DNA of 64,000 nucleotides from Candidatus Pacebacteria bacterium UBA1364 (GTDB lineage: Bacteria; Patescibacteriota; Microgenomatia; UBA1400; PJMF01): NCBI GenBank assembly GCA_002306345.1, contig DBRQ01000009.1:85197-149196 (forward strand), read 5' to 3'. This document shows, piece by piece, positions 39,927 to 63,782 of this stretch. Every line of letters starts with the position of its first letter. Position 1 is the first letter of the stretch. Position numbers and translations under genes: made by a program. The notes beneath the pieces are model-generated. The model had not been told where the DNA came from, searched no databases, and saw only the letters and a program-made list of their open reading frames with translations.

Positions 39927-41420
39927 TCACTCTTCTATTTTCCACACTTGCAAGCAGGGCGCTTGATTGATTCGACAAAAACTTGCCAAAAGTTGAGATG
40001 TTGGCAAATCCATTTCAAGTCGATGAGAATTAACCACTAGCAATTTAAGATCAAATCCTTGAGCTTTCTGCCAAAAACTTGAAGGAATTTCTCGAATTGG
40101 TTGACCAATACCTTCCACATAAATGTTGTCGACATTTTGATTGTGTAAATTAAGTAAAATACCATCGGGCAAGGTGCCAAAATAACCTTCAGTGGCGACA
40201 GCCACTCTTTGTGTTTGAGCGAATTTTTCAATCATTTCGCTAATTTCTTTAATACCGTGGCCAGAAGACCATTCTTCTAGGAATTGTTCACGATCGATTT
40301 TACTGAGTTGCAATTGATCAACATTAAAATAAGCATTTTTGATAAAGAGCAAATAGGGCAAGATGATTAACAAAAGAGCTAAAGATTGAATGATTTTTTT
40401 ATTACGCAGGTTATGTAATGAAATGGCGGCCGAACTCAAAAAAAATAAACTACTGCTCAAAATGTAGCGAGGATAAATAATCTTGCCAAGTAAAACAAGA
40501 GGTAAAATAAAAACTATTGCTGAGCAAAATAAAATACTTTGTTTGCGACGAGTTTTTTTAAAAGCTGGTAAGGCTAAAACGAGCACAACTGGGCCTAAAT
40601 AAGTCATCAATTGTTCCATAAAAAATTTGGTATTTCTTATTATGACTGGCCAAATTGCTGTTGAAAAAATGACTGATTTATCTTGTAAAAAATTACCGCC
40701 GACCGCAAACAATTGGCTAAATAAAGGTTCATTCTTAAAACTGGCAAGAGCCAAACCGGCTAGAATTAGGCCCAAACTGATTTTTAAAGCTTTATTTATG
40801 AATAACTGCAGATTTAATTTTTCTGCAAAAAAAATGGCCAAGTAAAAAACAGGAATAAAAAGTAAAGCCGGAGTTTTACTCATAATTGCCAGAAAGAAAA
40901 ACAAAGCTAAACCTAAAACTGGCCAAAAACTTTTATTTTTTACAATTAAAAGCACGAAATAATAAGAGACAGTTAAATTGGCAAAAAGCAGTGCATCGGT
41001 GATGGCTAAACGATTGTGAAAAAAAATAAATGGATTAATGATAGCTAAAAACATAGCTATATAAGCTGCTTTTTTTTCATGGAGCTTTTTTAAAATTAGA
41101 AAAATAAAAGAAACATTCATTGCGCCAGCCAATACTGAAACTAATCTAGCGGCGAAAAGTTGATCAGTAAAAAGACGCAAAAATGGCACCGTCAACCACA
41201 TTAACAGTGGCGTTTTACCATCATTCATTGGGTAAAAAAGGTAACGTGAAAAATCATCAATAATGAGTTGAGACCAACGAATATAGATTGCTTCATCAGC
41301 AAAAACAGGCAGTGTGGTTAAGTTAAAAAGATGTAAGACAAAATATAAAACTAAAAGAGCCAAAAAACAAAGCAAGCTTTTATTTTTCACGTCTTCTATT
41401 AAATAGGAAGATAGCCCCAC
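39927..41420 (-). CDS. GT-C membrane glycosyltransferase (ArnT/PMT_2-like)
   Basis: 497-aa polytopic ORF with first-loop motif PVFADEAIYIRWSQ and a C-terminal soluble domain. Confidence 0.78.
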   Translation of the reverse strand: MGLSSYLIEDVKNKSLLCFLALLVLYFVLHLFNLTTLPVFADEAIYIRWSQLIIDDFSRYLFYPMNDGKTPLLMWLTVPFLRLFTDQLFAARLVSVLAGAMNVSFIFLILKKLHEKKAAYIAMFLAIINPFIFFHNRLAITDALLFANLTVSYYFVLLIVKNKSFWPVLGLALFFFLAIMSKTPALLFIPVFYLAIFFAEKLNLQLFINKALKISLGLILAGLALASFKNEPLFSQLFAVGGNFLQDKSVIFSTAIWPVIIRNTKFFMEQLMTYLGPVVLVLALPAFKKTRRKQSILFCSAIVFILPLVLLGKIIYPRYILSSSLFFLSSAAISLHNLRNKKIIQSLALLLIILPYLLFIKNAYFNVDQLQLSKIDREQFLEEWSSGHGIKEISEMIEKFAQTQRVAVATEGYFGTLPDGILLNLHNQNVDNIYVEGIGQPIREIPSSFWQKAQGFDLKLLVVNSHRLEMDLPTSQLLASFCRINQAPCLQVWKIEE

Positions 41421-42630
41421 TAAGCAAGAGGTAGAAAATTGGAATTAGCCAGGTGATGCCAATTTGCCAGGTGAGCAGTTTGCTAGTATCCAGATCAAAA
41501 CTCATCCAAGGAAGGTAATAAAGCCATGGTAAGTAACGTAGTAAAGAAGAAACAGAGAAAACTATCAATAAATTACGCCAGAATTTATTTTTGACAAATG
41601 GAATAAAAACTAAAGGCCAAAGTAAATACCAAGGTAGAAATTGTTTAGAACGTTCTGTAAAAAGTGGTAAAAATAGAACTAAGCTCATGAAATCAAAATT
41701 GTATTTAGATGCACTTAATTTATATTTTGCTAATGGACTCTTATTTAATTTTTCTTTAAATATAAAATAAAAAATGAATGGTACTAAAACTAAGGTGGCA
41801 TATTTAATAGAAATAGAAATTGCCATTAAAATTATAATTAAAATTAGTTTAATCAATTTATTTTTTTCCAAGTGATTAGTTAAATTAAAATGGCTGCCTA
41901 AATCTAACTGGTTGGCTAAATAAAGAGCCAATAAGGCTGGAGCCAACATCCACAAATCATTATGAGCACTACTTAGAACCTCTATTAAGACAAGAGGATT
42001 GAAAAAAAAGATGGCTAATTGGCGATAATTTATTTTTTTAAAGAACTTTTCACTAATTGATAAAGTTAACAAAAGGGACAAGAAAGCGAATAATTTAAAA
42101 ACAATAAAGGTAAGTGAGAATTTTCCTAAACCAGCCAAATAAGGTAGCAAAGATAAAACTGTCCAACCATAACCGTAGGGAGCAACACTGTGGGTGTTAT
42201 TCATAAAACGCAGCATTGGTTCACTTGGAAAATCTAAAGCTGTTTGTATATGAGGATTACCACCCAGCTCAACTACCATTTTGGCATTAAAAATATAATT
42301 GAACAGGTCATGAGAAAGAGCATTGTAAGAAAAAATCAAAGGTAAACTAATAATAATTAAAAATTTCCAGAAATTTTTTTTATTATCTAAATTTAATTTA
42401 GACCAATTTTTAAGAACTAATAAATAATTACAAAAAATTAAAATAATTAAAACAAAAAAGAAAATAGTGCGAAAATTTCGCAATGGCAAAACATTTTGCC
42501 ATAGATAAGTCTGAAAATTAGTGAAGAAATTAACGTTAAATAGAGTCAAATTTGGATCGGTTAAAACGAAGGAAAAAACTGCAAATATAACGAACAAAAT
42601 AAAGTAACTTTTAAGTAAAAAACTTTTCAT
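41380..42630 (-). CDS. Polytopic membrane protein, GT-C-like (tentative)
   Basis: 416 aa with about 11 TM helices and a loop motif LSHDLFNYIFNAKM. It sits between GT2 and GT-C genes and overlaps its neighbours by 41 nt (downstream) and 4 nt (upstream). Confidence 0.6.
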   Translation of the reverse strand: MKSFLLKSYFILFVIFAVFSFVLTDPNLTLFNVNFFTNFQTYLWQNVLPLRNFRTIFFFVLIILIFCNYLLVLKNWSKLNLDNKKNFWKFLIIISLPLIFSYNALSHDLFNYIFNAKMVVELGGNPHIQTALDFPSEPMLRFMNNTHSVAPYGYGWTVLSLLPYLAGLGKFSLTFIVFKLFAFLSLLLTLSISEKFFKKINYRQLAIFFFNPLVLIEVLSSAHNDLWMLAPALLALYLANQLDLGSHFNLTNHLEKNKLIKLILIIILMAISISIKYATLVLVPFIFYFIFKEKLNKSPLAKYKLSASKYNFDFMSLVLFLPLFTERSKQFLPWYLLWPLVFIPFVKNKFWRNLLIVFSVSSLLRYLPWLYYLPWMSFDLDTSKLLTWQIGITWLIPIFYLLLSGAIFLFNRRREK

Positions 42631-43382
42631 TGTTTTGGATATTTATTTGTCCAATCAGCTTTTTTAATACGTAAAATATCGATAAACATTAAAACAGAAT
42701 CTCTAATTGGATTAACTCGATTAGTTTGAAAATGTTTCCACAAAATTGGTACTTCTTTGAGAGCAAAATTATATTTTTTGGCCAAATAAAGTAATTCAAC
42801 GTCAAATGCGCCAGTAAAAGCATTCTGTTGTTCATTTTTACCAGAGTAAATATAAAGATTTTCAAAAAGTTTGACTGTAGCTCGTTCAGAGAGCAGCTTG
42901 AAACCACACTGGGTATCTTGTACACCTGGTACTGCTAATAATTGTACAATCAAATTAAAGCCTCGACCCATGATGTGCCTATAAAACGGCTCTTTTTCTC
43001 TTTTAGCTCCAGTCAGTTCTCGTGAGCCAAAAATGACTTCATATTGGTTAGTATATTTAAGAAGTTTGCGTACTTCTCTTAGCGGGGTAGATTGATCAAA
43101 ATCGGTGAAAAGTCGCCAACTACCCGTTGCCTGTAACATACCAGTTTTGACGGTAGGGCCTTTGCCTTTATGTGGATTAAGAATTACTCTGATACGATCG
43201 TCTTTTTTACTAAATTTTTCTAATAAAACAGCTGTATCATCGCTACTGCCATCATCGGAGAGAATCAACTCCCAAGTTCTTTCGTAATCTCGCAAAAATT
43301 GATAAACTTCATCTAGCGAACCACGAGCAATATTTTTGCTTTCATTATAGGATGGTAAAATGACTGATAAATATGGTTTCAT
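42627..43382 (-). CDS. GT2 polyprenyl-phosphate hexosyltransferase-like (ALG5/dolichyl-phosphate glucosyltransferase-like)
   Basis: SVILPSYNES, LSDDGSSDDT, TDFDQSTP (DxD region), and a soluble protein of about 250 aa. Confidence 0.8.
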   Translation of the reverse strand: MKPYLSVILPSYNESKNIARGSLDEVYQFLRDYERTWELILSDDGSSDDTAVLLEKFSKKDDRIRVILNPHKGKGPTVKTGMLQATGSWRLFTDFDQSTPLREVRKLLKYTNQYEVIFGSRELTGAKREKEPFYRHIMGRGFNLIVQLLAVPGVQDTQCGFKLLSERATVKLFENLYIYSGKNEQQNAFTGAFDVELLYLAKKYNFALKEVPILWKHFQTNRVNPIRDSVLMFIDILRIKKADWTNKYPKQ

Positions 43383-43390: not shown

Positions 43391-44929
43391 TTAATTATAA
43401 CTTTGTAAGACAGTGATTTCTGGGCCATTTTCTATTTGGAAAACTTCCTTAATATTTTTATTTGGAAAAACCACAATTTCGTAAATTAAAGAATCTAAAA
43501 CATTTTTTTCTGTTTTTTCTTCATTGATAATGAAAAGCTTGCTAGCTGATTGATGATCTTCAATTTTAACCGGTTCATTTTCATTAGTACTCAAAAAGTA
43601 TCGATAATTCATGCCATAAAGGTCTTTGCTTGCTGACAACAAAACAATGTTATATTTTTCGTTTTTATCCACTCTTTGATAAATTGCTTGGCTGGTCTTA
43701 ATCATGTCATCCATCGTCCAACTACTATCTGCTAGAGTATATCTTTTGCTATTGTTGACGATAAAATAAATTAAAAATGGTACCAACAAAATTAACATTA
43801 GCCATTTATTTTTAAATTTAGCAAAGAATAAACCGTAAAAGATATAAACAAAAGGAAAAAGATAGGCAATGTAATGTTCATAAACTTGGTGTTGATAAAA
43901 GCTGATGCCGATTATTCCTGATACTAGATAGGCTAGTAAAACAATTTCACTAGCTTTAAGTTTTTTTCTATTTTTAACCAGATAAATAACGGTTACGATT
44001 AAAGTAAAGAATAGCATTGGGTGGTTATTTTTATTAACTCCAAAACTTGGTTCGAAAAGGACTTGAGAGGCACGATCTTTTAGATCAATACTGATAAATT
44101 TGGTAATGGCAGATAAACCTTTTCTGTCAGCTTTTCTCTCTAGATTAAAACTTTCTTTTTCAGTCAAAATTGAAGTAAAAGATCGGTAGTTAATAAAGTC
44201 GTGTTTAAAATCGAAAAGGATGAGGGGTGTGAGAGAGAGAAAAAAAATGATGACAGCCAATAAAATATTGCTGATAAATTTTCTTTCTTTTTTAAAAAAA
44301 TTTTTCTTTTGTAATTTAATTTTTGCAATTAATTGTATTAGAAAAATTAAAAAAGCCCCTAAAAATGATAGCAAAGTAACGTAATGTAATTGAATCAAAA
44401 TAGCAAAACAAAGTGAAACAGCAAGCCAATATTTGCTATTTTTTTGCCAAGATAGATAGGTAAAATAAAACATCAATAAACTAAAAAATGGTGCGATGTT
44501 GGGATTCCAACTAAAACGAGCCAAATTAACTACGGCAGCGGATAGAGTAAAAAATATGGTGGCTAAATAGGCAGTTTTTTGGTCAAAAATTTTTTTACTG
44601 ATTTGAAACAACAAAAAAACAGTTAACACGGACAAACCGGCTACAGCATAAACTGGACCCATTGGATTGGGATAAGAGAGAAACAAGAAGGGCAACATAA
44701 AATAATAATAAAATGGTCCCAAATACATGTTGCCAATGCTGGTGACTGGGCCAATAAAAACGGGGTCTTTGTCCTTAAAAATTTGTGAAACTATTAAAGC
44801 GTCTCTACCTTGATCACCTTGGAACATAAAAGAATTCCTCAGGTTGTAGAAACGTAAATAAATAGCTAAAAGTAAAATTAAAAATAAAAACACATCTTGA
44901 GTTTTTATTTTTTTAATCAGAGAAAGCAT
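43391..44929 (-). CDS. GT-C membrane glycosyltransferase (ArnT/PMT_2-like)
   Basis: 512-aa polytopic ORF with first-loop acidic motif FQGDQGRDALIV and a C-terminal soluble domain. Confidence 0.72.
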   Translation of the reverse strand: MLSLIKKIKTQDVFLFLILLLAIYLRFYNLRNSFMFQGDQGRDALIVSQIFKDKDPVFIGPVTSIGNMYLGPFYYYFMLPFLFLSYPNPMGPVYAVAGLSVLTVFLLFQISKKIFDQKTAYLATIFFTLSAAVVNLARFSWNPNIAPFFSLLMFYFTYLSWQKNSKYWLAVSLCFAILIQLHYVTLLSFLGAFLIFLIQLIAKIKLQKKNFFKKERKFISNILLAVIIFFLSLTPLILFDFKHDFINYRSFTSILTEKESFNLERKADRKGLSAITKFISIDLKDRASQVLFEPSFGVNKNNHPMLFFTLIVTVIYLVKNRKKLKASEIVLLAYLVSGIIGISFYQHQVYEHYIAYLFPFVYIFYGLFFAKFKNKWLMLILLVPFLIYFIVNNSKRYTLADSSWTMDDMIKTSQAIYQRVDKNEKYNIVLLSASKDLYGMNYRYFLSTNENEPVKIEDHQSASKLFIINEEKTEKNVLDSLIYEIVVFPNKNIKEVFQIENGPEITVLQSYN

Positions 44930-44935: not shown

Positions 44936-46111
44936 TTAATTTTTCTTTTTTTTCCAAATAAAAGTGTTATAAGCAAAAAAATTCCAAAACATGCCAATTA
45001 AAATGCCAACGACCGCAGAAACGGTGCCAGTATCAACAACATAATGGAACAAAGGTAGAGTGAACATTGGTTTAATTCCGATGAATTTTGAGGTAGCAAA
45101 AGCGATGACAGTCTGAATCAAAATAGAACCAGCACTAGATAAATTAAAAGTGAGAAAACTTAAAGGAATTTGTTTGGTTTGGAGTTTACGATCTTTGAAT
45201 GTCCATAAGTTGCTTAAAATAAAATTAGAACAAACAGCGGTTTCAATAGCTAAGAAATTGGCCAAAACAAAAATTTGTTCTGAAGGAAAGACCACACGCC
45301 ACAACTGCAAAGCTACTAGTTGTACAAGAGCACCAAAAGCGCCCACCATAGCAAATTTTACCACTCTTTTTCCTAAAATTTCTTTAATTCTCACTTTCAT
45401 AAGATATAACAAAGTATTTTTAATATACTCTGGTCCAATTTTACTATTACCTGCTACTCGATCTTTGAATTTAAATGGCACTTCCGTGATTTTAAAATTG
45501 GCGCGCAAAGCTTTGTGCAAAAAGCCAATTTGAAAAGTATAACCTGAAAATCGTTCGCTGTGGAGTTCTTTTTCTACCGTTTGATAAACATTTTTTCTGA
45601 TTGCACGAAAGCCTGTGGTCCAATCTCTGATAGAAAAATCTAGCATTAAAAAATTAATAAAACGGTTGCCAATTACACTTAAAAATTTACGATGTATACC
45701 CCAATCTTGAGGGATAGAACCACCTTTAATGTATCTGGAACCTAAAACAAGATCGTAGCCTTGGTCTATTTTAGCTAAAAATTCTGGAATCTTTTTGGGA
45801 TCATGAGAAAGATCAGCATCAAACTCAAAAACTACATCCGCTCCTAATTGGTTAAAAGCTTGATTCATGCCACTTAAATATGCTCCTCCGAGACCAGATT
45901 TTTTCTTATTGACCAAAAGATTTAAAAATTTTATTTTTTTCTGTAATGCTTTGACAAGAATCGCTGTGCCGTCTGGAGAATTATCATCTACCACCAAAAT
46001 TTGCATTTCCCAATTTTTAATTTTTTTAAAAACTAATTCCAAGGCATTGATAGTCTGAACAATATTATCTTTTTCGTTGTAAGTGGGAATAATTACAATG
46101 GCTTTTTGCAT
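44936..46111 (-). CDS. Polyprenol-phosphate mannosyltransferase-like GT2 (DPM1/Ppm1-like) fused to a GtrA-like 4-TM domain
   Basis: IIPTYNEKDNI, VVDDNSPDGT, FDADLSHDP and GSRY motifs. The C-terminal ~130 aa has 4 hydrophobic helices (VKFAMVGAFGALVQL...), typical of GtrA. Confidence 0.85.
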   Translation of the reverse strand: MQKAIVIIPTYNEKDNIVQTINALELVFKKIKNWEMQILVVDDNSPDGTAILVKALQKKIKFLNLLVNKKKSGLGGAYLSGMNQAFNQLGADVVFEFDADLSHDPKKIPEFLAKIDQGYDLVLGSRYIKGGSIPQDWGIHRKFLSVIGNRFINFLMLDFSIRDWTTGFRAIRKNVYQTVEKELHSERFSGYTFQIGFLHKALRANFKITEVPFKFKDRVAGNSKIGPEYIKNTLLYLMKVRIKEILGKRVVKFAMVGAFGALVQLVALQLWRVVFPSEQIFVLANFLAIETAVCSNFILSNLWTFKDRKLQTKQIPLSFLTFNLSSAGSILIQTVIAFATSKFIGIKPMFTLPLFHYVVDTGTVSAVVGILIGMFWNFFAYNTFIWKKKKN

Positions 46112-46112: not shown

Positions 46113-48025
<1,913 letters not shown>

Positions 48026-49471: not shown

Positions 49472-50143
49472 ATGAAAATCAATATTTTAACTATTTTTCC
49501 TGAGTTTTTTCTAAGTCCTTTACAAACTTCAATTTTGAAAAGAGCGACGAGCAGACATTTAATTGAATTTAATCTGCTGAATTTGCGTGATTTTACGAGC
49601 GACAAGCATCAAACTACAGACAGCAGACCTTTTGGCGGTGGTCCTGGGATGGTGATGATGATTGAGCCAATTGATAAAGCACTGCAATCTTTGCATCTGA
49701 GCCCAAAGCAATCTCACAAAAAAATTCTTTTAACCTCTGCCAAAGGTACATTATTTACTCAAGAAACAGCCAGAAATTTTGCTACTTTAGATGAGTTAAC
49801 ACTAATTTGTGGTCACTACGAAGGAGTAGACGAGCGAGTAGCAATGCATTTAGTAGATGGTGAAATTAGCATTGGTGATTACGTCTTAACTGGTGGTGAA
49901 GCTGCTGCTTTAGTGATTAGTGATGCTGTCACAAGATTAATTCCAGGCGTTTTAGGCAATGAGTTGAGCAATCAAGACGAATCCCATTCTCAGCCTCACA
50001 AAATCGGCCATCCACAATTTAGCAAGCCGGCTGATTATCGAGGTTGGACAGTACCGGAAATTTTACTCTCTGGCCATCACGAAAAAATTAAAGCTTGGCG
50101 TAAGCAAAGTGGTGTCAATCATGGTAAAAATAATGATTTTTAG
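49472..50143 (+). CDS. trmD: tRNA (guanine37-N1)-methyltransferase
   Basis: ILTIFPEFF, RPFGGGPGMVM, CGHYEGVDERV and GDYVLTGGE motifs. Confidence 0.93.
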   Translation: MKINILTIFPEFFLSPLQTSILKRATSRHLIEFNLLNLRDFTSDKHQTTDSRPFGGGPGMVMMIEPIDKALQSLHLSPKQSHKKILLTSAKGTLFTQETARNFATLDELTLICGHYEGVDERVAMHLVDGEISIGDYVLTGGEAAALVISDAVTRLIPGVLGNELSNQDESHSQPHKIGHPQFSKPADYRGWTVPEILLSGHHEKIKAWRKQSGVNHGKNNDF

Positions 50144-54892: not shown

Positions 54893-56550
54893 AAAAAATA
54901 GCGCTATTTTTGGCGATCGCATTCTTAATGCTTTTTTTACGTTTTTTTCATTTTAATCAGTCTCCGCCTAGTCCATATTGGGAAGAAGTGGCGCTTGCTT
55001 ATGATGCTTACAGTATTTCTCAAACTGCGAAAGATCATCATGGTAATTTTTTGCCACGAGTGGCTTTCGAATCCTTTGGTGATTTCAAGCCAAGTCTTTA
55101 TTTTTACTTGGCTGTGCCTTTTATTAAAGTCTTTGGTTTAAATGTTTTTGCCATTCGATTGCCCACTGTTTTATCTTCCATAGCTATTATTTTTGGGATT
55201 GCTTTTTTGGCTAAAAATTTATTTCAATATTTTTATTTGAAAAACGATCCAAAAGCGGCCAATTTTATTTTTTACCTGGCTTTATTTTTGGCTAGTTTAT
55301 CGCCTTGGTTATTAACTTTTTCTAGATCGGCTTGGGAAAGCACTTTGGCAACAGCCCTGATTCTTTGGGGTTGTAATTTTTGGTTGTATTTTATGGTTAA
55401 GAATAAAAGCAAGTGGGCGATTTTGGCAGTTATTTTTTTAGTTCTCTCAACTTATGCTTATCACGCGGCTAGAATTACCGCCCCTTTGCTTGGTTTAGCT
55501 TTAGTTTTAGCTTATCTAAAAAAAAAGACTTTCTTTGCTCTAAAAAAATCACTGAATTTGCCAGCTTTGTTTACCGCTATTTTGTTAGCTATATATCTTT
55601 TTTGGCCAATTGGTCAATCTTTATTTGAAAAAACTGGTCAGCAGCGTATTGCCGAAACAAGTATTTTTTCTGATATCTCTATTATTGAAAAAAGCAACGA
55701 ATTGAAAGCCAAACACAATAATTCTTTATTTTCTAGAATTGTTTATCATCGTTATCTTCTTTTTAGCAAAGAAGCAGCGGGAAATTTTTTGGATCATTTT
55801 AATTTTACTTACTTATTTGTTAGTGGCGATCATAATCCAAGGCACAGTATCCAAACTTTTGGTGAATTTTATTATCTTGACGCGCTGTTTTTTGTAGCGG
55901 CTTTAGTTTTTTTCTTCCGTCATAGAAATCGTCTTACTTACTTTTTGTTTTTTTGGTTATTCGTGGCAATTTTGCCAGCTGCTTTCACTCAAGCTACGCC
56001 TCATGCTTTAAGAACTTTAGCGGCTTTACCGATTTTATTAATTTTTTTGAGTTTTGGGGTGTGGCAATTTTTACAAGTTTTTAAAAATCTCAAACAAAAA
56101 AAATTCGCTTTATTATCAATTGTTGTTGTTTATTTATTTTTTGCGACTACATTTTTTTATCAATTAATTTACATTTATCCAAATCAGTACAGAAGCGAAT
56201 GGCAGTTTGGTTATGAAGAAATGATTCAAAAATTATTGTTAATAAAAAATAATTATGAAAAAATTTATGTGACTAGAGAACAGGGTAGACCGGCCATGTA
56301 TTATTTTTTTTATGCGCAAGTTGACCCAAAATTAGTCCAAGCTTTTGACCAACAAGCGAAAAAAGATCAAGGTGAATTTTTAAATTTTGCGAATATTGAA
56401 TTTATAGATAAAAGTGATCAAGTTGATGGAACTAAAAAAAGTTTAATTATTAGCTCGCCAGATTTTTACAAACGTTTTTTTGCGGAGCAAAATTTTGCTA
56501 TTATCGATGAAACTGAAAACCAAACTTGGGTATTTTATGAAAATAAATAA
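54889..56550 (+). CDS. GT-C membrane glycosyltransferase (ArnT/PMT_2-like), tandem paralog 1
   Basis: LRFFHF..SPPSPYWEEVALAYDAYSI, IRLP, GDHNPRHS and TPHALR motifs shared with the next two genes. Confidence 0.8.
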   Translation: MKKIALFLAIAFLMLFLRFFHFNQSPPSPYWEEVALAYDAYSISQTAKDHHGNFLPRVAFESFGDFKPSLYFYLAVPFIKVFGLNVFAIRLPTVLSSIAIIFGIAFLAKNLFQYFYLKNDPKAANFIFYLALFLASLSPWLLTFSRSAWESTLATALILWGCNFWLYFMVKNKSKWAILAVIFLVLSTYAYHAARITAPLLGLALVLAYLKKKTFFALKKSLNLPALFTAILLAIYLFWPIGQSLFEKTGQQRIAETSIFSDISIIEKSNELKAKHNNSLFSRIVYHRYLLFSKEAAGNFLDHFNFTYLFVSGDHNPRHSIQTFGEFYYLDALFFVAALVFFFRHRNRLTYFLFFWLFVAILPAAFTQATPHALRTLAALPILLIFLSFGVWQFLQVFKNLKQKKFALLSIVVVYLFFATTFFYQLIYIYPNQYRSEWQFGYEEMIQKLLLIKNNYEKIYVTREQGRPAMYYFFYAQVDPKLVQAFDQQAKKDQGEFLNFANIEFIDKSDQVDGTKKSLIISSPDFYKRFFAEQNFAIIDETENQTWVFYENK

Positions 56551-58075
56551 AATTTTATTGCTTTTGATATTTTTTTTAGGTTTGTCCTTGCGCTTTTTTC
56601 ATTTAGGTCAAATTCCGGCAATTCTTAATCGAGATGAGGCGGCTTTGGCTTATAATGCGCACTTAATTGCAACAAGTGGTCAAGATGAATGGCAAGTATC
56701 TTGGCCCTTAACTTTCAAATCTTTTGGGGATTATAAATTGCCTGGTTACCCTTATTTATTAGCGTTTTTATTTAAGTTTTTACCAGAAAATGATTTTGTC
56801 ACTCGTTTGCCTTCTGCTTTAGCAGGTAGTTGCTTGATCATTGTAGCTTTTTTCTTTGCTAGAGATATTTTGAAAGTTAAAGAGCGATCGGCCTTATTAA
56901 TGGCTTTACTGGTAGCCATTACTCCAGTTTTTTTCTTTTATTCACGGATTGCTTTTGAGGCGAACGTAGCTTTATTTTTATTTGTTTTGGGGTTGTATTT
57001 TCTTTTAAAAGATAAAGCAAATTTTGTTTTGGCTAGTAGCTTAATTTTTTTAGCAATTTTAACTTACAACACTCCTTTATTATTGCTGCCATTTATTATT
57101 TTTATTTTGATTTATAAAATTGGTTTTAAAAAAATCAAACAGTGGCTAGGACCAGTTTTTTTATTATCGATAATTTTTCTTTGGGCTATCATTAATTTTT
57201 ACACACTTGCTACACAAAAAAGCACGATTACTATTTTTGGTGATCCGGGAGTTTGGGAGCAATTTGCGCTGTATCGGTCTAATTTGTCAGGATTTTGGCA
57301 AACAATTTTTGGTAATAAATACGTTTTTTACTTACAAATTTTATGGCAAAATTTACTCAAAAGTTTTTCTATTAAATTTTTAGTAGAACAAGGAGGTAGC
57401 CATCCTTGGCACGCTTTACCCTCTTTTGGGCATCTTTTTTACAGTGTTTATTTTTTAGCGATTTTTATGTTAATTGACTTTTTTGGAGAAATTGTCATTG
57501 CGTTGCAAGATGGTTCTTTTAATAAAAAGCATTTGATTTTGCTCTATTTAACCATTGTGGCTTTGGCGCCATCCGTGGTGACAGTAGATAGTCCACACGC
57601 TACACGAAGTTTATTTTTCTTTTTTATGTTGATTGCTTTATGCACAATGTTTATTGACAAACTTTGTCGTATTTTATCTAAAAAAAGTAAATGGTTTATA
57701 GTTTTTTTCCTAAGTCTTCTAACTATAGAAAGTTTTATTTATTACCAAAATTATTTTCTGCAATACCCCAAACATCAACCAGAAAGTCTTTTTGTTGATT
57801 ATAAAAATTTAATTCAAGAGGCTAGAAGCCAATACAATGATGAACCAGTGGCAGTAATTGATCCCGGAGGATATCAATACATTATCACTGCTTGGTATTT
57901 AAAACTAACAAATGAGCAATTTTTCGCTACAATGCAGTATCAAAGCGCTGATAACATTAATTTTTATTATGGTGAAAGGCTGTTGAATTATCATTTTATT
58001 AAAAATTTAGCAGATAAAAATGAGAAAGAGAAAATTGTTCTTTCTCAAGAATCAGGATTAGTTAAATATGAATAA
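56537..58075 (+). CDS. GT-C membrane glycosyltransferase (ArnT/PMT_2-like), tandem paralog 2
   Basis: LRFFHLGQIPAILNRDEAALAYNAHLI, TRLP and SPHATR motifs. ATG 56537 overlaps the end of the upstream gene (stop codon 56548-56550). Confidence 0.8.
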   Translation: MKINKILLLLIFFLGLSLRFFHLGQIPAILNRDEAALAYNAHLIATSGQDEWQVSWPLTFKSFGDYKLPGYPYLLAFLFKFLPENDFVTRLPSALAGSCLIIVAFFFARDILKVKERSALLMALLVAITPVFFFYSRIAFEANVALFLFVLGLYFLLKDKANFVLASSLIFLAILTYNTPLLLLPFIIFILIYKIGFKKIKQWLGPVFLLSIIFLWAIINFYTLATQKSTITIFGDPGVWEQFALYRSNLSGFWQTIFGNKYVFYLQILWQNLLKSFSIKFLVEQGGSHPWHALPSFGHLFYSVYFLAIFMLIDFFGEIVIALQDGSFNKKHLILLYLTIVALAPSVVTVDSPHATRSLFFFFMLIALCTMFIDKLCRILSKKSKWFIVFFLSLLTIESFIYYQNYFLQYPKHQPESLFVDYKNLIQEARSQYNDEPVAVIDPGGYQYIITAWYLKLTNEQFFATMQYQSADNINFYYGERLLNYHFIKNLADKNEKEKIVLSQESGLVKYE

Positions 58076-59717
58076 GAAAAAAGAAATTATTTTTTTAATA
58101 ATAATACTCGCCATAGCCTTTTTTTTGCGTTTTTTTCAACTAGGCAGTAATCCTGCTGCTTTATATTGGGATGAGGCAGCCATTGCTTTGGATGCTTACA
58201 GTATTGCGACTACGGGCAAGGACATGAATAACCAATTTTTCATGCAGCCAGTTTTAGGTTCTTATGGAGATTTTAAAGCGCCAGTGCTGATTTGGTTAGC
58301 AGTTCCATCAGTATATTTATTTGGCATGACGCCTTTTGCCATTCGTTTGCCCGTGGCCTTATTTTCTATTCTCAGTATTTATTTGGCTTATTTATTATTG
58401 AAAGAACTACTTACTTTTGACGGTCAACTGGCCAAGCGCTACAAATTTATGCCGCTTTTATTAGCGCTAATCATGGCAATTTCTCCCTGGACAGTTCATT
58501 TTGGCCGCATTGGTTTTGAATCCAGTCTTTCGGTAGCCTTTTTGCTTTTAGCTTTGTTGTTTTTTCTTAAAGCCTTAAAAAATAAAGGTCACTACTTTTT
58601 ATTGAGTGCTTTTTTTGCCAGCATAGCGGTTTATTCATATTATTCTTTGCGTATTGTTCTGCCTTTGTTTTACTTAGCTTTAGTGATCATCTTTTTTAAA
58701 GAAATTAAAAAGAATCACCTTTGGCGTAAATTAATTTTGGCCCTTTGCTTATTTGCTGTTACCATGATTCCTATTCTCAGTTCGCCTTACTATGCGAGGA
58801 GTCAGGATTATCGTCTCAATAATGATAATTTAATTCATCACCAAAAAGTAATTGAAGAATCAAGTAAATATTTGGAAAGATATAATTCCAATTTGTATTC
58901 AAGAGTGGTTTATCACCGCTACGTATTTGTAGTCCGAGATTTTTTAAGCAACATGGCCGCTCATTTTAGTAACGACTTTTTGTTTTTTAAAGGAGACAAT
59001 AATTTACGCCAACACTCTGGTTATTTTGGCGAATTTTTATTAGTTAGTTTGCCTTTTTATTATTTGGGATTGTTTTTACTTTTTAAAAATTACAAAAGTA
59101 AATTATCGGCTTTTTTAGTAGTTTTTATGGTTTTATCACCGATTCCTGCAGCCATGGTTTATGAAGTCCCACATGCTTCTCGAGCAATTTATTTATTTGT
59201 GCCTTTTTCAATATTGATTGCTTGGGGAATCAATCAATTTATACTTTTTGGTAAAAAAATTGCCATTTTTATTACTGCGGGTTTATTTTTAATTAATGCC
59301 ATTTTTTATTATAGTGATTATTTTATTGAATATCCAAAAAGATCCAGTGAGGCGTGGCTCTATAGTTACAATCAAGTAGCTATATATATTAAGGAGCACT
59401 ATCAAGAGTTTTCTAAAATAGAAATCGATGAACGTTATTGGCTACCTAGAATTTTTGTTTATTACCAATTTCCGCAATTGTTGGATCAAACTAGAGAGCT
59501 CAAAAATGCCCTACTCAATAATCCAATCAATAGTTTTGGTTTGGCTGATCCTTTTGCTTATCTTTTAGATCAAAATGATCTCGGTAAGAAGCAGGCTAAA
59601 TTTATTTATTATAAAGATGAAATTCCCACCGGTTTTTATGCGGTCAAAAATTTTGATTTCTTAAATGGTGAAAAAAGTTTAGTTTTAGTTGTCAAAGACG
59701 GTCAAAAAAGTAATTGA
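58068..59717 (+). CDS. GT-C membrane glycosyltransferase (ArnT/PMT_2-like), tandem paralog 3
   Basis: LRFFQLGSNPAALYWDEAAIALDAYSI, IRLP, GDNNLRQHS and VPHASR motifs. 8-nt overlap with the upstream gene. Confidence 0.8.
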   Translation: MNKKKEIIFLIIILAIAFFLRFFQLGSNPAALYWDEAAIALDAYSIATTGKDMNNQFFMQPVLGSYGDFKAPVLIWLAVPSVYLFGMTPFAIRLPVALFSILSIYLAYLLLKELLTFDGQLAKRYKFMPLLLALIMAISPWTVHFGRIGFESSLSVAFLLLALLFFLKALKNKGHYFLLSAFFASIAVYSYYSLRIVLPLFYLALVIIFFKEIKKNHLWRKLILALCLFAVTMIPILSSPYYARSQDYRLNNDNLIHHQKVIEESSKYLERYNSNLYSRVVYHRYVFVVRDFLSNMAAHFSNDFLFFKGDNNLRQHSGYFGEFLLVSLPFYYLGLFLLFKNYKSKLSAFLVVFMVLSPIPAAMVYEVPHASRAIYLFVPFSILIAWGINQFILFGKKIAIFITAGLFLINAIFYYSDYFIEYPKRSSEAWLYSYNQVAIYIKEHYQEFSKIEIDERYWLPRIFVYYQFPQLLDQTRELKNALLNNPINSFGLADPFAYLLDQNDLGKKQAKFIYYKDEIPTGFYAVKNFDFLNGEKSLVLVVKDGQKSN

Positions 59718-59720: not shown

Positions 59721-61364
59721 ATGAAAATGAAAAAATTTTTTGCCTTGGTTTTTTTCTCTTTATTAACTCTTATTAGTTGTCATTATTTTTTCCACCCCGG
59801 GGTACCAGTTACTCATGATGGCAATAATCATTTAGTGCGTTTTGCCAATTACAAAATAGCGTTGCGCGAATTACAAATTCCGCCTCGTTTGGCTCCAAAT
59901 TTGTTAAATGGCTATGGTTATCCGGTCTTTAATTATAATTATCCATTGGCTAATATTTTATCCCTCCCTTTTTCTATTCTTAATTTCCATTATGAGACAA
60001 CTTTTAAAATAATTATTAGCCTCTCTGTTTTTTTTGCTTTTGTCGGGGCAAATTTATTTTTAAAAAGTAAAAAATTTAAAAGAAATGCCAGAATTTTTTC
60101 CTTGCTTGTTTTTGCCCTCAATCCTTATATTTTTACTAGCATTATTTTTCGAGGTAATATTGGAGAAATAATGGCTTGGAGTATTTTACCTTGGATTTTT
60201 TATTTCATAGAAAAAATTAAAACAAGCCAGGTTTTGCTTGAAAAAAATTTGCTTTTTTTAACTATTTCTTTAAGTCTTTTACTTTTAGCACACAACGTAA
60301 CTGCACTTTTTGCTTGCATTTTAATCGGTTTTTATTTGTTATTTAATTTCGGGCGCAATTGGTCAGCTTGGAAAAAATTTATTGTCAGTTTTATTTGGGC
60401 TTTTGCCATTGCTTTATGGTTTTGGTTGCCAGCAATGCTCGAAAAAAATTTAGTGACATTAGACGACGTTGATTTGACTCTCAATTATTACAAACATTTT
60501 CCAACGCTTAGTCAATTAATTCGTTTGCCCATTTCTTTTGGCTATTCTTATTGGGGCAGTATTGACTCAATGTCTTTTGGTTTGGGAGCTTTGCAATTAA
60601 TTTTAATTTTTTTATCTTTATTTTATTTGTTTAAAAACAAAGCCAAAGACAATCTTGTTTTTATTCTTGCCCTTTTTATTTTAATTTTAGGTCAATTGCC
60701 CATTACTAAACCACTTTATGATTTTTTACCGTTCGTTAAATTTATTCAGTTTCCTTGGCGCTTGACACTGTTAATTTCCATAGTTTTATTGCCCATTAGC
60801 GCTCTTATTTTTGAAAACGCTAAAAAATATTGGAAAATTTTGCTCGTTATTTTGACTTTTTTGCAATTATTACAATTTATTAAAACTGAGCCTATAGATT
60901 ATCGGCATAAAGATGAAATTGATTATGATGCCAGTAGTGAAACCACCTCAGTAAATCAAGAAAATATGCCAAAAAGCTTTACTTTTGCTTTTTTTGAGAC
61001 AAAACAAGAGCCAGTTTTTATTTTAAAAGGAGCTGGTCAAGTGACTGTTAAAGATTTTTTTGGCTCTTATCGTCACTACTTGTTGCAGTTGGAAGAAAAA
61101 TCAATTGTTGTTGAATCAACCGCCTTTTTTCCAGGTTGGCAAAGTAAAGTTAATGGTCAGAAAATTAATTATTTAGATAATGAAGAAATCAAAGGGCGGA
61201 TTGCCTACGAATTAGAAGCTGGTCAATATGAAGTTAGTACACGCTTTACTCAACAAACTTGGCCTAGGATAGTTGGCAACAGTGTTAGCGCTTTCGCTTT
61301 ATTGCTTTTACTTTTTGTAAGTTTTGATTTTTGGCAAAAGGATAGAAAAAATAAAAAACAGTGA
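59721..61364 (+). CDS. Polytopic membrane protein, second GT-C-like family, with C-terminal extracytoplasmic domain and TM anchor
   Basis: 547 aa with THDGNNHLVRFANY, GYGYPVFNYNYPL, FIQFPWRL and FPGWQSKVNGQK motifs, then a terminal TM helix and KDRKNKKQ tail. Confidence 0.72.
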   Translation: MKMKKFFALVFFSLLTLISCHYFFHPGVPVTHDGNNHLVRFANYKIALRELQIPPRLAPNLLNGYGYPVFNYNYPLANILSLPFSILNFHYETTFKIIISLSVFFAFVGANLFLKSKKFKRNARIFSLLVFALNPYIFTSIIFRGNIGEIMAWSILPWIFYFIEKIKTSQVLLEKNLLFLTISLSLLLLAHNVTALFACILIGFYLLFNFGRNWSAWKKFIVSFIWAFAIALWFWLPAMLEKNLVTLDDVDLTLNYYKHFPTLSQLIRLPISFGYSYWGSIDSMSFGLGALQLILIFLSLFYLFKNKAKDNLVFILALFILILGQLPITKPLYDFLPFVKFIQFPWRLTLLISIVLLPISALIFENAKKYWKILLVILTFLQLLQFIKTEPIDYRHKDEIDYDASSETTSVNQENMPKSFTFAFFETKQEPVFILKGAGQVTVKDFFGSYRHYLLQLEEKSIVVESTAFFPGWQSKVNGQKINYLDNEEIKGRIAYELEAGQYEVSTRFTQQTWPRIVGNSVSAFALLLLLFVSFDFWQKDRKNKKQ

Positions 61365-63048
61365 TAAACAGAGCAACCAGAGAGAGACTGTCGCCAATTT
61401 TTCTGGCAGTAGTGTTTTCACTTAAATAAATACCCACTTGGTGATGACCGGCAGGCACGCTAATTTGAATGTTTCCTAAACTGCTATTTGTTTGAATATC
61501 TTGTTTTTGGCCATCAATTTCAGCTTGCCAGCCAGCAAAATTGGCTACTTTGAAATTGACAAGCTCAGCTTCCCTTAATTCAAGACTGATTAATTTTTCG
61601 AAACTATGATCAACAATTGTTTCTAATTTATCTATTTCTTGGCCACTGGCTAGCCACACTGCAGGTAATTCTTGATTACTTTTTAATAAAATTGTTTGCT
61701 CTGCCATTTGCTTTGGAATGTAGTCAGGCAAAATGGCGCTCATTTCATTTTGAATTCTTTCCGCATCAGTGTAATAAAGAGCGTCTTGCTCATCTAAATA
61801 TTTTTCTGGTTTAAAATAAGTTGCATTAAAAAGTAAAACAAATAATATAAAAAGTCCGTATAAACCGCGTTGCTGCCGATTTTTAATCAAGTAAGCTGAA
61901 ATTGCCAAGAGAATAGCGATGAAAAAAACCGCTACAGAGAGAAAACGCCAAGGAAATTGAATAAATTGTAAAATTGCTAAATTATCCCAAATAAATTGAC
62001 TCTTCATCAAACTCATAAAAAGAGCAAACAAAGTAAAAAAACCAAAAAGCAAAATTAAAAAGAACAAATGACTTTTGCGAAATTTTTTGAAATTTTTATA
62101 TAAATGAAAAGCACAAAAAAGGCCCAAACATAAAAGTCCCAATAATTGGCCTTTACCCAAGAAAAAAGAAATCCCATCGTCAGGACCCCAAACTGAGCCC
62201 TCATATTGCCAGCGATCTTGGAAAAATTGTCTAATGTAAAGAAAATGATTCGAATAATGAAAATAACCGGAAAAAATTGTATTAATGACGGTTAAATCTT
62301 TTTCCAGCAGAGCAGGAACAACGTAAAAAGCTGACGCCGCGCCGGCCAACAAAAATTGTGCAGCTAAAGGCCATAGTAACTTCATTTTTTTCTGATGCAG
62401 CAAGTAAATAAAAGTAAAGACAGCAGCGAGAGGAATAAAAATTAAAGCAGTTAAATTATGGGAAAGAAGAATGGCAAATAAAGAAATAAACAAAATAAAT
62501 AAGTATTTTTTTCTTTGTTCTTTAGTGAAGGCAATGATGGCGAAAAGGACCAAAGGCAAAAAAGCCATGGCAAAAGTTTCACTCAAAGCTTCTCTGACAA
62601 AAAGATTGACGCTACGATATGGCGCTAATGTGTAAGCAGCAGCGAGTAATAAACCGCCCCATCTACCCAGTAATTTTCTGCCCAAAAAGTAGGCTCCAAG
62701 TAAAGTGATAGCGTTTACTAATAAATATAAAATTTTTATACTAGTAACCACACTGCAACCAAGCTTGCAAAAAATAGCCCCAATGAAATAAGGCAGAGGA
62801 GCATAAAAATTAAAAAGCGGCATCCCAAATCCATAACCGAAATTACCACTCCAGCGAACTGGGAATTGTCCTTCATCAAGAGCCCTCGACATTTCGGCAA
62901 TTCTACTGGCATGAGTGAAATCATGGCCGCGAAAAAAACTTTCGTGGAGAACTGAGTAACTGCTGGCCAGAAAAATGAAGAATAAAAAAATCACTACAAA
63001 ATAACTTTTGAGAAAAGAGAATAGTTGATGTAAAAATTTATTTAGCAT
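61285..63048 (-). CDS. Paralog of 59721-61364 (same polytopic family), convergent
   Basis: 587 aa with GHDFTHASRIAEM, GYGFGMPLFNFYAPL, FIQFPWRF and FAGWQAEIDGQK motifs, then a terminal TM helix and KVKAIKRKR tail. Confidence 0.72.
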   Translation of the reverse strand: MLNKFLHQLFSFLKSYFVVIFLFFIFLASSYSVLHESFFRGHDFTHASRIAEMSRALDEGQFPVRWSGNFGYGFGMPLFNFYAPLPYFIGAIFCKLGCSVVTSIKILYLLVNAITLLGAYFLGRKLLGRWGGLLLAAAYTLAPYRSVNLFVREALSETFAMAFLPLVLFAIIAFTKEQRKKYLFILFISLFAILLSHNLTALIFIPLAAVFTFIYLLHQKKMKLLWPLAAQFLLAGAASAFYVVPALLEKDLTVINTIFSGYFHYSNHFLYIRQFFQDRWQYEGSVWGPDDGISFFLGKGQLLGLLCLGLFCAFHLYKNFKKFRKSHLFFLILLFGFFTLFALFMSLMKSQFIWDNLAILQFIQFPWRFLSVAVFFIAILLAISAYLIKNRQQRGLYGLFILFVLLFNATYFKPEKYLDEQDALYYTDAERIQNEMSAILPDYIPKQMAEQTILLKSNQELPAVWLASGQEIDKLETIVDHSFEKLISLELREAELVNFKVANFAGWQAEIDGQKQDIQTNSSLGNIQISVPAGHHQVGIYLSENTTARKIGDSLSLVALFITVFYFFYPFAKNQNLQKVKAIKRKR

Positions 63049-63782
63049 CGCTCTTTAGATTTTAAAGAAGAAAATTTAATACTTAAATAAGTAGTTAAAG
63101 CTTGCCAACAGGCTTTAATAATGATTTTAAAATTAGCGCCGGTAGCTTGACCGTAAAGTCGGGGATAGTGAGTAACGGCAATTTCTTTAAATTTCACTCC
63201 CTTTTTCTTAAGACGATAAAGAATTTCTGCACTGGTAAAAGCACTGCCAGAATTAAGCTTTAAGTTTTTGAGTAAATCTGCCTTAAATAGTTTAAAAGCA
63301 CAATCAATATCTTTGACGTGAATGCGAAATAATAAGTCAATGTAAATTTTAAAAAGATTGGCATTTAAACGCCTTTTGAAACCCTCTGCTCTTTTTTTTC
63401 TATATCCAATAATTGCATCATACTGTGTACTTGCCTCTACAAAATTGGCTAATTCTGCTAAATCAAACTGCAAATCGCTGTCAGTCCAAAAAATCCATTC
63501 ATATTGGCTTTTTTTAATACCAGTTTTGAGTACTTCACCATAACCTTTATTAGATTGGTGAGAATAGATTTTTATATGTGCATCTTCACTTTGCAATTTT
63601 TTAGCAATACTCAAACTAGCGTCGGTGCTGCCGTCATTAATGATTAATAACTCATATTGATGAGCCAAAGTGGGCACAATGCGCAGAGCTTGTTTGATTA
63701 AAACCTCTAAATTGGCTTCTTCATTGTAAACAGGAAAGAAAACCGATAGAGACCTAAGTTTTTTCATGACAGTTGCTATCAT
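63042..63782 (-). CDS. GT2 glycosyltransferase (polyprenyl-phosphate sugar synthase-like, GtrB/DPM1-like)
   Basis: VFFPVYNEEANL, INDGSTDAS and WTDSDLQFD (DxD) motifs. 7-nt overlap with the downstream membrane protein gene. Confidence 0.82.
   Translation of the reverse strand: MIATVMKKLRSLSVFFPVYNEEANLEVLIKQALRIVPTLAHQYELLIINDGSTDASLSIAKKLQSEDAHIKIYSHQSNKGYGEVLKTGIKKSQYEWIFWTDSDLQFDLAELANFVEASTQYDAIIGYRKKRAEGFKRRLNANLFKIYIDLLFRIHVKDIDCAFKLFKADLLKNLKLNSGSAFTSAEILYRLKKKGVKFKEIAVTHYPRLYGQATGANFKIIIKACWQALTTYLSIKFSSLKSKERC

Follow-up and report, generated by a model that had tools for sequence, protein, structure and literature searches.

Introduction

Mycobacterial arabinogalactan and lipoarabinomannan (LAM) are made by a hybrid route, in which the glycan is started in the cytoplasm and extended outside by glycosyltransferases of the GT-C class. 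In this system (WecA, GlfT1/2, Ppm1/DPA, AftA-D, EmbA-C, MptA-C, PimE and Lcp1), GT-A and GT-B enzymes act first, many paralogous GT-C enzymes then draw on a few shared polyprenyl-phosphate-sugar donors, and an LCP (LytR-CpsA-Psr) enzyme acts last. GT-C enzymes use lipid-phosphate-sugars at the outer face of the membrane, Wzx flips lipid-diphosphate-linked oligosaccharides, and LCP enzymes transfer polyprenyl-diphosphate-linked glycopolymers to peptidoglycan. Here we describe a cluster of glycosylation genes at positions 39,927-63,782 of a 64 kb stretch of DNA, hereafter the window, from contig DBRQ01000009.1 of Candidatus Pacebacteria bacterium UBA1364. We put at about even the chance that this cluster encodes a secondary cell-wall glycopolymer pathway of Microgenomates/Pacebacteria with the same hybrid topology.

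The likeness to the mycobacterial system lies in the hybrid order, with GT-A and GT-B enzymes first, in the many paralogous GT-Cs that would share few lipid-linked donors before a final LCP step, and in the best structural matches of two proteins, AftD for 59721 and PimE for 41380 (genes are named by the lower coordinate of their reading frame). The two systems differ in phylum and in genome size, which is about fivefold smaller here (853 kb in the relative CP011212.1), and the mycobacterial enzymes share only 10-17% sequence identity with the window proteins. The mycobacterial sugars are Araf, Galf and Man, whereas those implied here are D-rhamnose, an L-rhamnose-type sugar and a uronic acid. 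In addition, a Wzx is present here, no WecA lies nearby, and most of the GT-Cs are PMT_2/ArnT-like rather than Emb/Aft-like.

One published account portrays Patescibacteria as stripped of both the metabolism and the biosynthesis of polysaccharides (PMC7137472), and glycans are not mentioned in a recent perspective on their biology (PMC11665869). We found no literature on GT-C arrays in the candidate phyla radiation (CPR)/Patescibacteria; the nearest report is the earlier inference of a rhamnose wall polysaccharide for Patescibacterium (PMC11809585). Every component of the cluster falls in or near a known family, and its overall logic is known from the Mycobacteriales. What is new is the setting in ultrasmall Patescibacteria, the density of GT-C genes and the composition, which joins a Wzx, a synthase of the dolichol-phosphate mannose synthase (DPMS) type whose gene goes with those for GDP-D-rhamnose, and a polytopic family yet to be characterised. 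About 30 kb kept for envelope glycan assembly corresponds to about 3.5% of an 853-kb genome, and at least ten GT-Cs to about 12 per Mb. M. tuberculosis has about 4 GT-Cs per Mb.

Results

Extent and conservation of the cluster

All open reading frames (ORFs) of at least 100 aa in the window were scanned with Pfam profiles. Every ORF on which a first-pass annotation of this DNA had relied was present, with coordinates exact or a few codons off; all membrane proteins of the cluster are annotated as hypothetical. That annotation had given the cluster an extent of 24 kb, ending at 63782. The cluster is real, but this end was set by the edge of the window. On identical contigs it runs on past base 64000 for about 6.5 kb more, where a run of family 2 and family 4 glycosyltransferases diverging from the GT2 gene 63042 (GT2a-GT2b-GT2c-GT4-GT2d) leads on to the gene of a further, tenth GT-C (508 aa; E 2e-37 against 54889), then to argS and the start of another GT2. 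With this GT-C as seed, a metagenome scan gave a 4.9-kb identical fragment, which also carries argS and the further GT2 start downstream. GT2b resembles rhamnosyltransferases, and GT2a-d and GT4 are all predicted to be ordinary soluble cytoplasmic transferases.

Two genes between the nucleotide-sugar genes and the main GT-C array encode a ligase and a flippase:

52219 to 53328, minus strand: LCP ligase (LytR_cpsA_psr, PF03816, 98.9 bits; TIGR00350 81.3 bits against a cut-off of 62.3; transmembrane (TM) segment at residues 16-34)
53387 to 54892, plus strand: Wzx-type MOP flippase (Polysacc_synt_3 169.8 bits; about 12 TM segments)

The Wzx ORF opens mechanically at 53231, and on identical contigs the gene is called from about 53387 or 53399. 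It has weak NCBIfam matches to MOP flippases, to an O-glycosylation Wzx and to TuaB. In most relatives the GT2a-GT2b-GT2c-GT4-GT2d run lies directly beside Wzx. Because Wzx and LCP enzymes act on lipid-diphosphate glycans, and five cytoplasmic transferases adjoin them, the logic of the locus appears to be hybrid. The first-pass annotation had proposed extracytoplasmic transfer from lipid-phosphate-monosaccharides and had set the cluster apart from classical O-antigen or capsule assembly. The former is still the best reading of the GT-C and GT2 genes but fails as an account of the whole pathway, and the latter is contradicted by Wzx, LCP and the transferase run past the window end.

We then looked at the conservation of the two halves of the locus. 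A genome scan seeded on the 41380 family gave 80 genome loci for block A, whose order is LCP - rmlB - rmlD - (trmD) - ugd - rmd - gmd - GT2::GtrA - 43391 - GT2 - 41380 - 39927. It turns up again in genomes that bear the names Microgenomates, Pacebacteria, Woesebacteria and Shapirobacteria, with the core run in 68 of the 80 loci and rmd-gmd-GT2::GtrA in 66; most of the genome loci listed have 39927 in the syntenic place, and the identity of 41380 over these loci is 35-72%. By name, homologues of the window's proteins come from Candidatus Pacebacteria, Candidatus Microgenomatus, Microgenomates group, Woesebacteria, Shapirobacteria and Patescibacteria group. For block B we combined the metagenome scan that started from the tenth GT-C with local phmmer mapping, which gave 67 loci, many of them short fragments. 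The order was [rmlB-LCP] - 61285-like - Wzx - GT2a-GT2b-GT2c-GT4-GT2d - GT-C - GT-C - (GT-C) - GT-C - GT-C - GT2 - GT4 - 59721-like, and the GT2a-GT2b-GT2c-GT4 run was seen in 29/67 of these metagenome contigs, many of which are short. Related contigs carry a median of 6 GT-C ORFs per 21-kb locus. Since arrays of GT-C paralogues recur in this way, the array is not a product of chance. Blocks A and B are directly fused in two genomes (L143 and L152). Taken together, the order of both blocks is kept over many genomes, so that the supercluster is a conserved locus of the lineage and not a peculiarity of one genome, and its conservation over Microgenomatus, Pacebacteria, Woesebacteria and Shapirobacteria suggests strong selection.

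GT-C enzymes of the PMT_2/ArnT-like subfamily

Six of the polytopic proteins are placed by profile matches and paralogy in one GT-C subfamily, in the neighbourhood of the CAZy families GT39 and GT83. The gathering cut-off of PMT_2 (PF13231) is 26.1 bits, and TM1 denotes the first predicted TM segment:

9261 to 10961, plus strand: GT-C of PMT_2 type, 566 aa (PMT_2 28.6 bits; weak Glyco_transf_22; DE62-63 after TM1)
39927 to 41420, minus strand: GT-C of PMT_2 type, 497 aa, final gene of block A (PMT_2 50.7 bits; DE42-43 after TM1)
43391 to 44929, minus strand: GT-C of PMT_2 type, 512 aa (PMT_2 30.9 bits; D39-Q40...D43 after TM1)
54889 to 56550, plus strand: PMT_2/ArnT-like GT-C, 553 aa (no Pfam match; EE32-33 after TM1)
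56480 to 58075, plus strand: GT-C of PMT_2 type (PMT_2 38.3 bits; DE52-53)
58068 to 59717, plus strand: PMT_2/ArnT-like GT-C, 549 aa (PMT_2 41.2 bits; DE35-36)

The assignment of 54889 was made through its paralogy to 58068 (E 4e-55) and 56480 (E 9e-26). The gene that the first-pass annotation had called 56537 is real, and that position is an ATG internal to an ORF opening at TTG 56480; the start is likely 56507 or 56537, as gene calls on identical contigs give proteins of 522 or 512 aa. When 58068 alone was searched against the PDB, only ArnT was found (E 0.08), and a profile of its subfamily (A4, 53 sequences) matched ArnT 5ezm at E 0.0056. Residues E36, D52, D68, K70, R147 and E151 are invariant in the A4 alignment (n=53 sequences). 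All six proteins have a DE-type motif 7-16 residues past predicted TM1, located by its position after TM1 and not by one-to-one alignment to the catalytic Asp of ArnT or PMT.

The first-pass annotation had counted nine polytopic GT-C genes in the window, which together occupy 22% of its 64 kb. The GT-C assignment held for eight of them, the six above and two AftD/oligosaccharyltransferase (OST)-like proteins described below, and is probable only for 41380. The acidic motif in the first loop, chosen in advance as the feature whose lack would count against the GT-C claim, was found in 8/9 of the ORFs, the exception again being 41380.

PMT_2 is the protein O-mannosyltransferase family, which raises the possibility that these enzymes put polyprenyl-phosphate-sugars on Ser/Thr of secreted or surface proteins such as pili, S-layer or Thr/Pro-rich proteins, with the LCP enzyme as a protein glycan ligase. 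There are precedents in actinobacterial Pmt/Ppm1 and in S. mutans Pgf, and PgfS is the best NCBIfam match of two of the GT2 genes (far under the cut-off), while Wzx weakly matches the O-glycosylation flippase. LcpA of A. oris is reported to glycosylate a protein (PMC6381275), giving a precedent for an LCP enzyme that acts on protein. Against this, PMT_2 also spans ArnT-like enzymes whose targets are lipids and glycans, the A4 profile matches ArnT and not Pmt1/2, and there is no MIR domain. The tight synteny that the GT-Cs show with rml genes, Wzx, LCP and five cytoplasmic transferases typifies wall polysaccharide loci, and we know of no precedent for ten distinct protein O-glycosyltransferases in one small genome. 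We thus consider protein O-glycosylation an unlikely role for the cluster, though one to be taken seriously; it is most plausible for GT-C 9261, an outlier at a distance of 30 kb from the main cluster, whose gene is separated by 560 bp from a downstream gene for a Thr/Pro-rich secreted protein (11520-12464).

The surroundings of 9261 deserve a short description. The gene at 11520-12464 (plus strand) begins 560 bp past the 9261 stop. Its 314-aa product carries a signal peptide as well as Thr/Pro-rich repeats (TLTPTVATTITPTVATTITPTEVPKPTDP...) and could plausibly be a target of O-glycosylation. Next come 12461-13135 (224 aa, C-terminal TM anchor) and then 13092-14021, which encodes a CAP-domain protein. 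On the other side, divergent from 9261, a gene at 8582-9157 (minus strand) encodes a 191-aa membrane protein with 3 or 4 TM segments and no Pfam match; it could be a small flippase-like partner of this GT-C. The 8582-9157/9261 gene pair recurs on contig L160.

The GT-C pair 59721 and 61285

Two further polytopic proteins are full-length paralogues of each other (E 5e-33):

59721 to 61364, plus strand: GT-C of a second subfamily with an AftD/OST-like fold, the GT-C_A type (AlphaFold2 and Foldseek; no Pfam match)
61285 to 63048, minus strand: GT-C, 587 aa, PTPS_related/DUF6541 (PTPS_related 36.7 bits, above cut-off; HD42-43)

An AlphaFold2 model of 59721, built from a 53-sequence alignment, had a pLDDT of 89.7 and a pTM of 0.91. 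All 11 Foldseek matches of this model at E <=1e-3 were GT-C proteins, with AftD 6w98 best (3e-5), followed by STT3 8age (7e-5) and AglB (2e-4). PglB, AftB and ArnT came after these with weaker E-values. The 59721 family also aligned with a PMT_2-like family in hhalign (probability 91%, E 1e-6), and H32 and D33 following TM1 are invariant in the 53 sequences. For 61285, DUF6541 scored 31 bits, PMT_2 25.5 bits (just below the cut-off) and GT-C_AftD weakly; a PDB search with its single sequence found nothing useful. A search with the profile A3 also gave no meaningful match. These data indicate a GT-C fold for both proteins, for 59721 by its predicted structure and for 61285 by paralogy.

The matches of 59721 to STT3, AglB and PglB (E 7e-5 to 3e-3) bring to mind an archaeal-style pathway, in which polyprenyl monophosphate would carry the growing glycan, Wzx would flip it (as with AglR) and 59721/61285 would transfer it en bloc as an oligosaccharyltransferase. 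Such a pathway needs no phosphoglycosyltransferase, and the window yielded none, nor did the scanned ORFs of relatives give a strong match to one. The Agl system of Haloferax volcanii likewise combines polyprenyl-phosphate GT2s, a MOP flippase, a PMT_2-type GT-C (AglS-like) and a UDP-glucose dehydrogenase, and the window has weak NCBIfam matches to AglJ, AglM, AglF and Agl23. These matches, however, are far below the equivalog cut-offs, and here an LCP enzyme, which requires a diphosphate-linked donor, is present. The WWD[YW]G motif of AglB-type enzymes is absent from all nine polytopic proteins, also in its shorter form WW[DE]. The C-terminus of the 59721 model is a small beta-sandwich of about 80 residues (432-509) before the last TM helix and not an OST-type domain, and the top match is AftD rather than an OST. 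An oligosaccharyltransferase function for 59721 and 61285 was therefore rejected on the lack of the WWD motif and the small C-terminal domain, and we regard the en bloc pathway as extremely unlikely.

The 61285 gene is intact in the window and on a Logan contig (L006/L157), and in three other assemblies of about 99% identity it is split in two by independent 1-nt indels: +C and -T (L001), -T in a T5 run (L002/L003) and +A (L007), at about 62185, 62061 and 61904. Phase variation was disfavoured, as the base runs are only 2-5 long and the indels differ among assemblies; strain-level pseudogenisation and assembly error are likelier causes. The homologues of 59721 include some of about 920-950 aa, about twice the normal length, one of them named 'Gpi18-like mannosyltransferase' by JGI, which suggests that other Patescibacteria have proteins made of two fused GT-C modules.

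The polytopic protein 41380

The ninth polytopic protein stood apart in all our searches:

41380 to 42630, minus strand: polytopic PF26314 protein, 416 aa, probable divergent GT-C (PimE-like by AlphaFold2 and Foldseek)

Neither the Pfam scan nor NCBIfam gave a match for 41380, and PDB searches by sequence and by profile (A1) found nothing. Precomputed annotation places PF26314 on all 672 homologues, a family without a solved or curated relative and for which we found no mention in the literature. The AlphaFold2 model (pLDDT 90.7) had PimE 9dm7 as its best Foldseek match, with a probability of 0.96 but weakly (E 0.11, TM-score 0.34/0.37). The other matches, AglB, ArnT, ALG3, ALG6 and Pmt1/2, were weaker still (all E >=0.11, TM-score <=0.37), and GT-C proteins made up 7 of the top 10. 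Comparison of the 41380 family with two other GT-C families by hhalign gave a probability of just 31-40%, and PMT_2 matched weakly in 2 of 46 family members. Residues N103, S106, D108, H223, N224, D225 and K276 are invariant. No acidic pair is present in the first 70 residues, and D108 is placed in an extracytoplasmic loop past the third predicted TM helix, not in the first loop; it would correspond to the first-loop catalytic Asp solely if TM1-2 were an N-terminal addition. Taken together, the model and its matches suggest that 41380 is probably a divergent GT-C.

PimE is a phosphatidylinositol-mannoside mannosyltransferase. This match, together with that of 59721 to AftD and the DPMS-like 44936, would also suit a membrane-anchored lipoglycan resembling lipomannan or LAM, in which the GT-Cs extend a glycolipid of the cytoplasmic membrane and not a peptidoglycan-linked polymer. 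We think this very unlikely: the PimE match is weak (E 0.11), no PimA/B-type GT4 signature or inositol gene was seen in the window, and block A opens with a conserved LCP ligase.

Candidate polyprenyl-phosphate-sugar synthases

The first-pass annotation had taken three GT2 genes for polyprenyl-phosphate-hexose synthases and had placed each of them next to GT-C genes. The ORF map bears out the second point, and the first is borne out strongly for 44936, moderately for 63042 and weakly for 42627:

44936 to 46111, minus strand: GT2 with a four-helix GtrA/DPMS TM domain, the archaeal DPMS architecture (Glycos_transf_2 98.3 bits, GtrA_DPMS_TM 60.5 bits)
63042 to 63782, minus strand: GT2, 246 aa, ArnC/GtrB-like candidate (Glycos_transf_2 90.7 bits)
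42627 to 43382, minus strand: GT2, 251 aa, possible polyprenyl-phosphate-sugar synthase or ordinary GT2 (Glycos_transf_2 73.6 bits)

In the PDB, 44936 matched the DPMS of Pyrococcus furiosus (PfDPMS, 5mlz) over residues 3-347 at E 3.6e-37, and ArnC at about 1e-15. Its GT2 catalytic domain with a four-helix TM domain is that of PfDPMS; it differs in lying downstream of gmd and rmd, directly so in 66 of the 80 related genome loci, and its donor may be a GDP-6-deoxyhexose instead of GDP-mannose. 63042, which shares 7 nt with the start of 61285, matched ArnC 9hwj (E 1.8e-14, residues 9-229) and GtrB (4e-12). For 42627 the best matches were PfDPMS (7e-12) and ArnC, restricted to N-terminal residues 5-159. 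A DXD motif is present in all three (DAD98 in 44936, DSD101 in 63042 and DFD94 in 42627). About four TM segments are predicted in 44936 and none in 42627 and 63042; the latter two would resemble the soluble catalytic subunits DPM1 and Ppm1-D2, a likeness that is compatible with such a role but not diagnostic. The family matches suggest that 44936 and 63042 are members of the polyprenyl-phosphate glycosyltransferase family that includes DPMS, ArnC and GtrB.

A GT2 synthase beside a GT-C is also the arrangement of three-component systems (GtrA/GtrB/GtrX, CsbB/GtcA/YfhO, GacI/GacJ/GacL and ArnC/ArnE-F/ArnT), and the resemblance extends to 63042, which is ArnC/GtrB-like, and to the GtrA-type TM domain of 44936. 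The adjacent GT2 and GT-C genes could then form independent modules that only add side-chain sugars to a backbone made in the cytoplasm. Three-component systems are reported to be widespread (PMC11127046, PMC8035078), and the frameshifts of the 61285 homologue in some strains would be expected of a dispensable, variable decoration. But about ten GT-Cs for 2-3 synthases fit one-to-one modules poorly. Among the window ORFs of at least 100 aa there is no stand-alone GtrA flippase, and GtrA_DPMS_TM occurs solely as the C-terminal domain of 44936. Known three-component systems are strain-variable or phage-borne serotype converters, whereas the order and content of the GT-C array here are strongly conserved at the level of deep lineages. 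We consider decoration alone quite unlikely.

Nucleotide-sugar genes

Block A and one distant locus carry genes for three kinds of activated sugar:

46113 to 47156, minus strand: gmd, GDP-mannose 4,6-dehydratase (TIGR01472 439.2 bits against a cut-off of 415)
47087 to 48025, minus strand: Rmd-like GDP-4-keto-6-deoxy-D-mannose reductase (PDB matches 2pk3 and 6x3b)
48064 to 49344, minus strand: UDP-glucose dehydrogenase-like, ugd (TIGR03026 435.8 bits, above cut-off)
50140 to 51018, minus strand: RmlD-like dTDP-4-dehydrorhamnose reductase (RmlD_sub_bind 161.6 bits; TIGR01214 151 bits, below the cut-off of 224)
51022 to 52044, minus strand: RmlB, dTDP-glucose 4,6-dehydratase (TIGR01181 460.6 bits against a cut-off of 365)
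14338 to 15084, plus strand: RmlA-like glucose-1-phosphate thymidylyltransferase (NTP_transferase E 3e-65; TIGR01207 312.8 bits, below the cut-off of 360)

Profile or PDB matches thus agree with all the GDP-, UDP- and dTDP-sugar modification genes, the LCP ligase and the Wzx of the first-pass annotation. 47087 matched 2pk3, a GDP-6-deoxy-D-lyxo-4-hexulose reductase, over its full length at E 8.5e-51, and 6x3b, a GDP-6-deoxy-D-mannose reductase, at 7.5e-37; on these matches UDP-xylose synthase and GDP-fucose synthase were dropped in favour of Rmd. Together with gmd it would yield GDP-D-rhamnose. 48064 scores 423 bits for TuaD and 338 bits for AglM, in both cases under the equivalog cut-off. The distant RmlA-like 14338 is a putative supplier of dTDP-sugars. 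The rmlB and rmlD genes are adjacent here, and several relatives (L123, L142 and L153) have an extra ORF of 177-194 aa in between.

The rhamnose wall polysaccharide loci of streptococci, lactococci and enterococci also combine rml genes, rhamnosyltransferase-like GT2/GT4 genes, LCP and side-chain addition by GT-Cs. Loci of the streptococcal type export through an ABC transporter and have 1-2 GT-Cs, whereas we see Wzx, no ABC transporter and about ten GT-Cs.

A proposed hybrid route to a wall glycopolymer

In the pathway that we propose as the most parsimonious, judged by homology, the cluster would supply GDP-D-rhamnose (gmd and rmd), a UDP-uronic acid (ugd) and a dTDP-6-deoxyhexose (rmlA/B/D). 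GT2a-d and GT4 would start the glycan as a short chain on a polyprenyl carrier, on the cytoplasmic side of the membrane, and Wzx, to go by its family, would move the polyprenyl-linked glycan outward. As homology and gene adjacency suggest, 44936, 63042 and perhaps 42627 would join single sugars to polyprenyl phosphate. Outside, about ten GT-Cs, which fall into three subfamilies, would use these lipid-phosphate-sugars to extend and branch the glycan. Several GT-Cs would share each donor and differ in linkage, like the Aft, Emb and Mpt enzymes with decaprenyl-phosphate-arabinose and polyprenyl-phosphate-mannose. Finally, the LCP enzyme is expected from its family to attach the finished polymer to peptidoglycan.

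Several observations weigh against this pathway. 41380 and GT2 42627 were assigned only weakly, and the PMT_2-type enzymes could equally well glycosylate proteins. At least the 61285 step may be dispensable, given the frameshifts in three other assemblies. RmlC (dTDP-4-dehydrorhamnose 3,5-epimerase) was not found in the window, so the dTDP-sugar may not be L-rhamnose, or rmlC may be located elsewhere. The trmD and argS genes interrupt the cluster, which suggests several transcription units and not one operon; trmD (49472-50143, plus strand) keeps this position in nearly all related genomes, and argS is at 2887-4686 of contig L009.

The lack of a primer is a further such point. The first-pass annotation had seen no priming transferase, Wzy, Wzz or ABC exporter, and this stands within the window: Glycos_transf_4, Bac_transf, Wzy, Wzz and ABC transporter profiles had no match in its ORFs of at least 100 aa (Wzy is poorly covered by profiles), and among the nine ORFs without a Pfam match none encodes a polytopic protein of the phosphoglycosyltransferase, Wzy, Wzz or ABC kind. 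We found no priming phosphoglycosyltransferase in the window, in 10 kb upstream or in about 8 kb downstream, and no Glycos_transf_4 or Bac_transf in 44 unassigned flanking ORFs of relatives. Of these ORFs, 10 were scanned directly and 34 as cluster representatives packed as one alignment, the latter result holding among the matches listed (25 of 55 families), where matches weaker than about 1e-10 could be hidden. Overall, the negative covers the window and the flanks of +/-10 kb of about 100 related loci, as distinct from a whole genome. In B. subtilis, S. aureus and mycobacteria, too, the priming gene is found at a distance from the main cluster, so that its lack here is not decisive. A priming phosphoglycosyltransferase would be either absent or encoded elsewhere in the genome, and we predict the latter.

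A more speculative extension of the hybrid pathway, which we would bet against, is that 44936 makes an undescribed donor, polyprenyl-phosphate-D-rhamnose or another GDP-derived 6-deoxyhexose, and that about ten GT-Cs including 41380/PF26314 polymerise most of a lineage-specific wall polymer outside. If so, Microgenomates would be a second independent case, after Mycobacteriales, of envelope glycans built mainly by GT-Cs, and such an investment in genomes of <1 Mb would imply an essential role, for example in host attachment. If the hybrid pathway itself is correct, the identity of the wall polymer, the new lipid-linked donor and the ligase step become targets, and it could help explain how ultrasmall episymbionts build and display their surface. 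The cluster probably defines the cell surface that faces hosts and phages.

Surroundings of the cluster

The window sequence is also present in the NCBI metagenome-assembled genome GCA_035403425.1 and in several JGI and Logan assemblies. The small genome assumed by the first-pass annotation is a reasonable premise, as the relative CP011212.1, in which 41380 has a homologue of 70% identity, is complete at 853 kb. The G+C content of the window is low (0.28-0.39) and its coding density high. Its housekeeping genes include gltX, ybeY, dnaX, frr, rseP, secDF, recJ, a gene for the CCA-adding enzyme, coaD/E and trmD, together with those for pyruvate formate-lyase and its activase and for ADP-forming acetyl-CoA synthetase.

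Beyond the end of block A lie genes for a histidine kinase, an OmpR-type response regulator and a 156-aa HATPase_c fragment (36178-37566, 38768-39439 and 39411-39881). Many relatives have, past the 39927 homologue and on the other strand, an ORF of about 220-230 aa without assignment. A regulator of the cluster may be encoded among these genes. A 267-aa GT2 is encoded amid housekeeping genes about 3.4 kb before the window begins (L158, 6797-7600); glycosyltransferase genes are scattered well outside the cluster.

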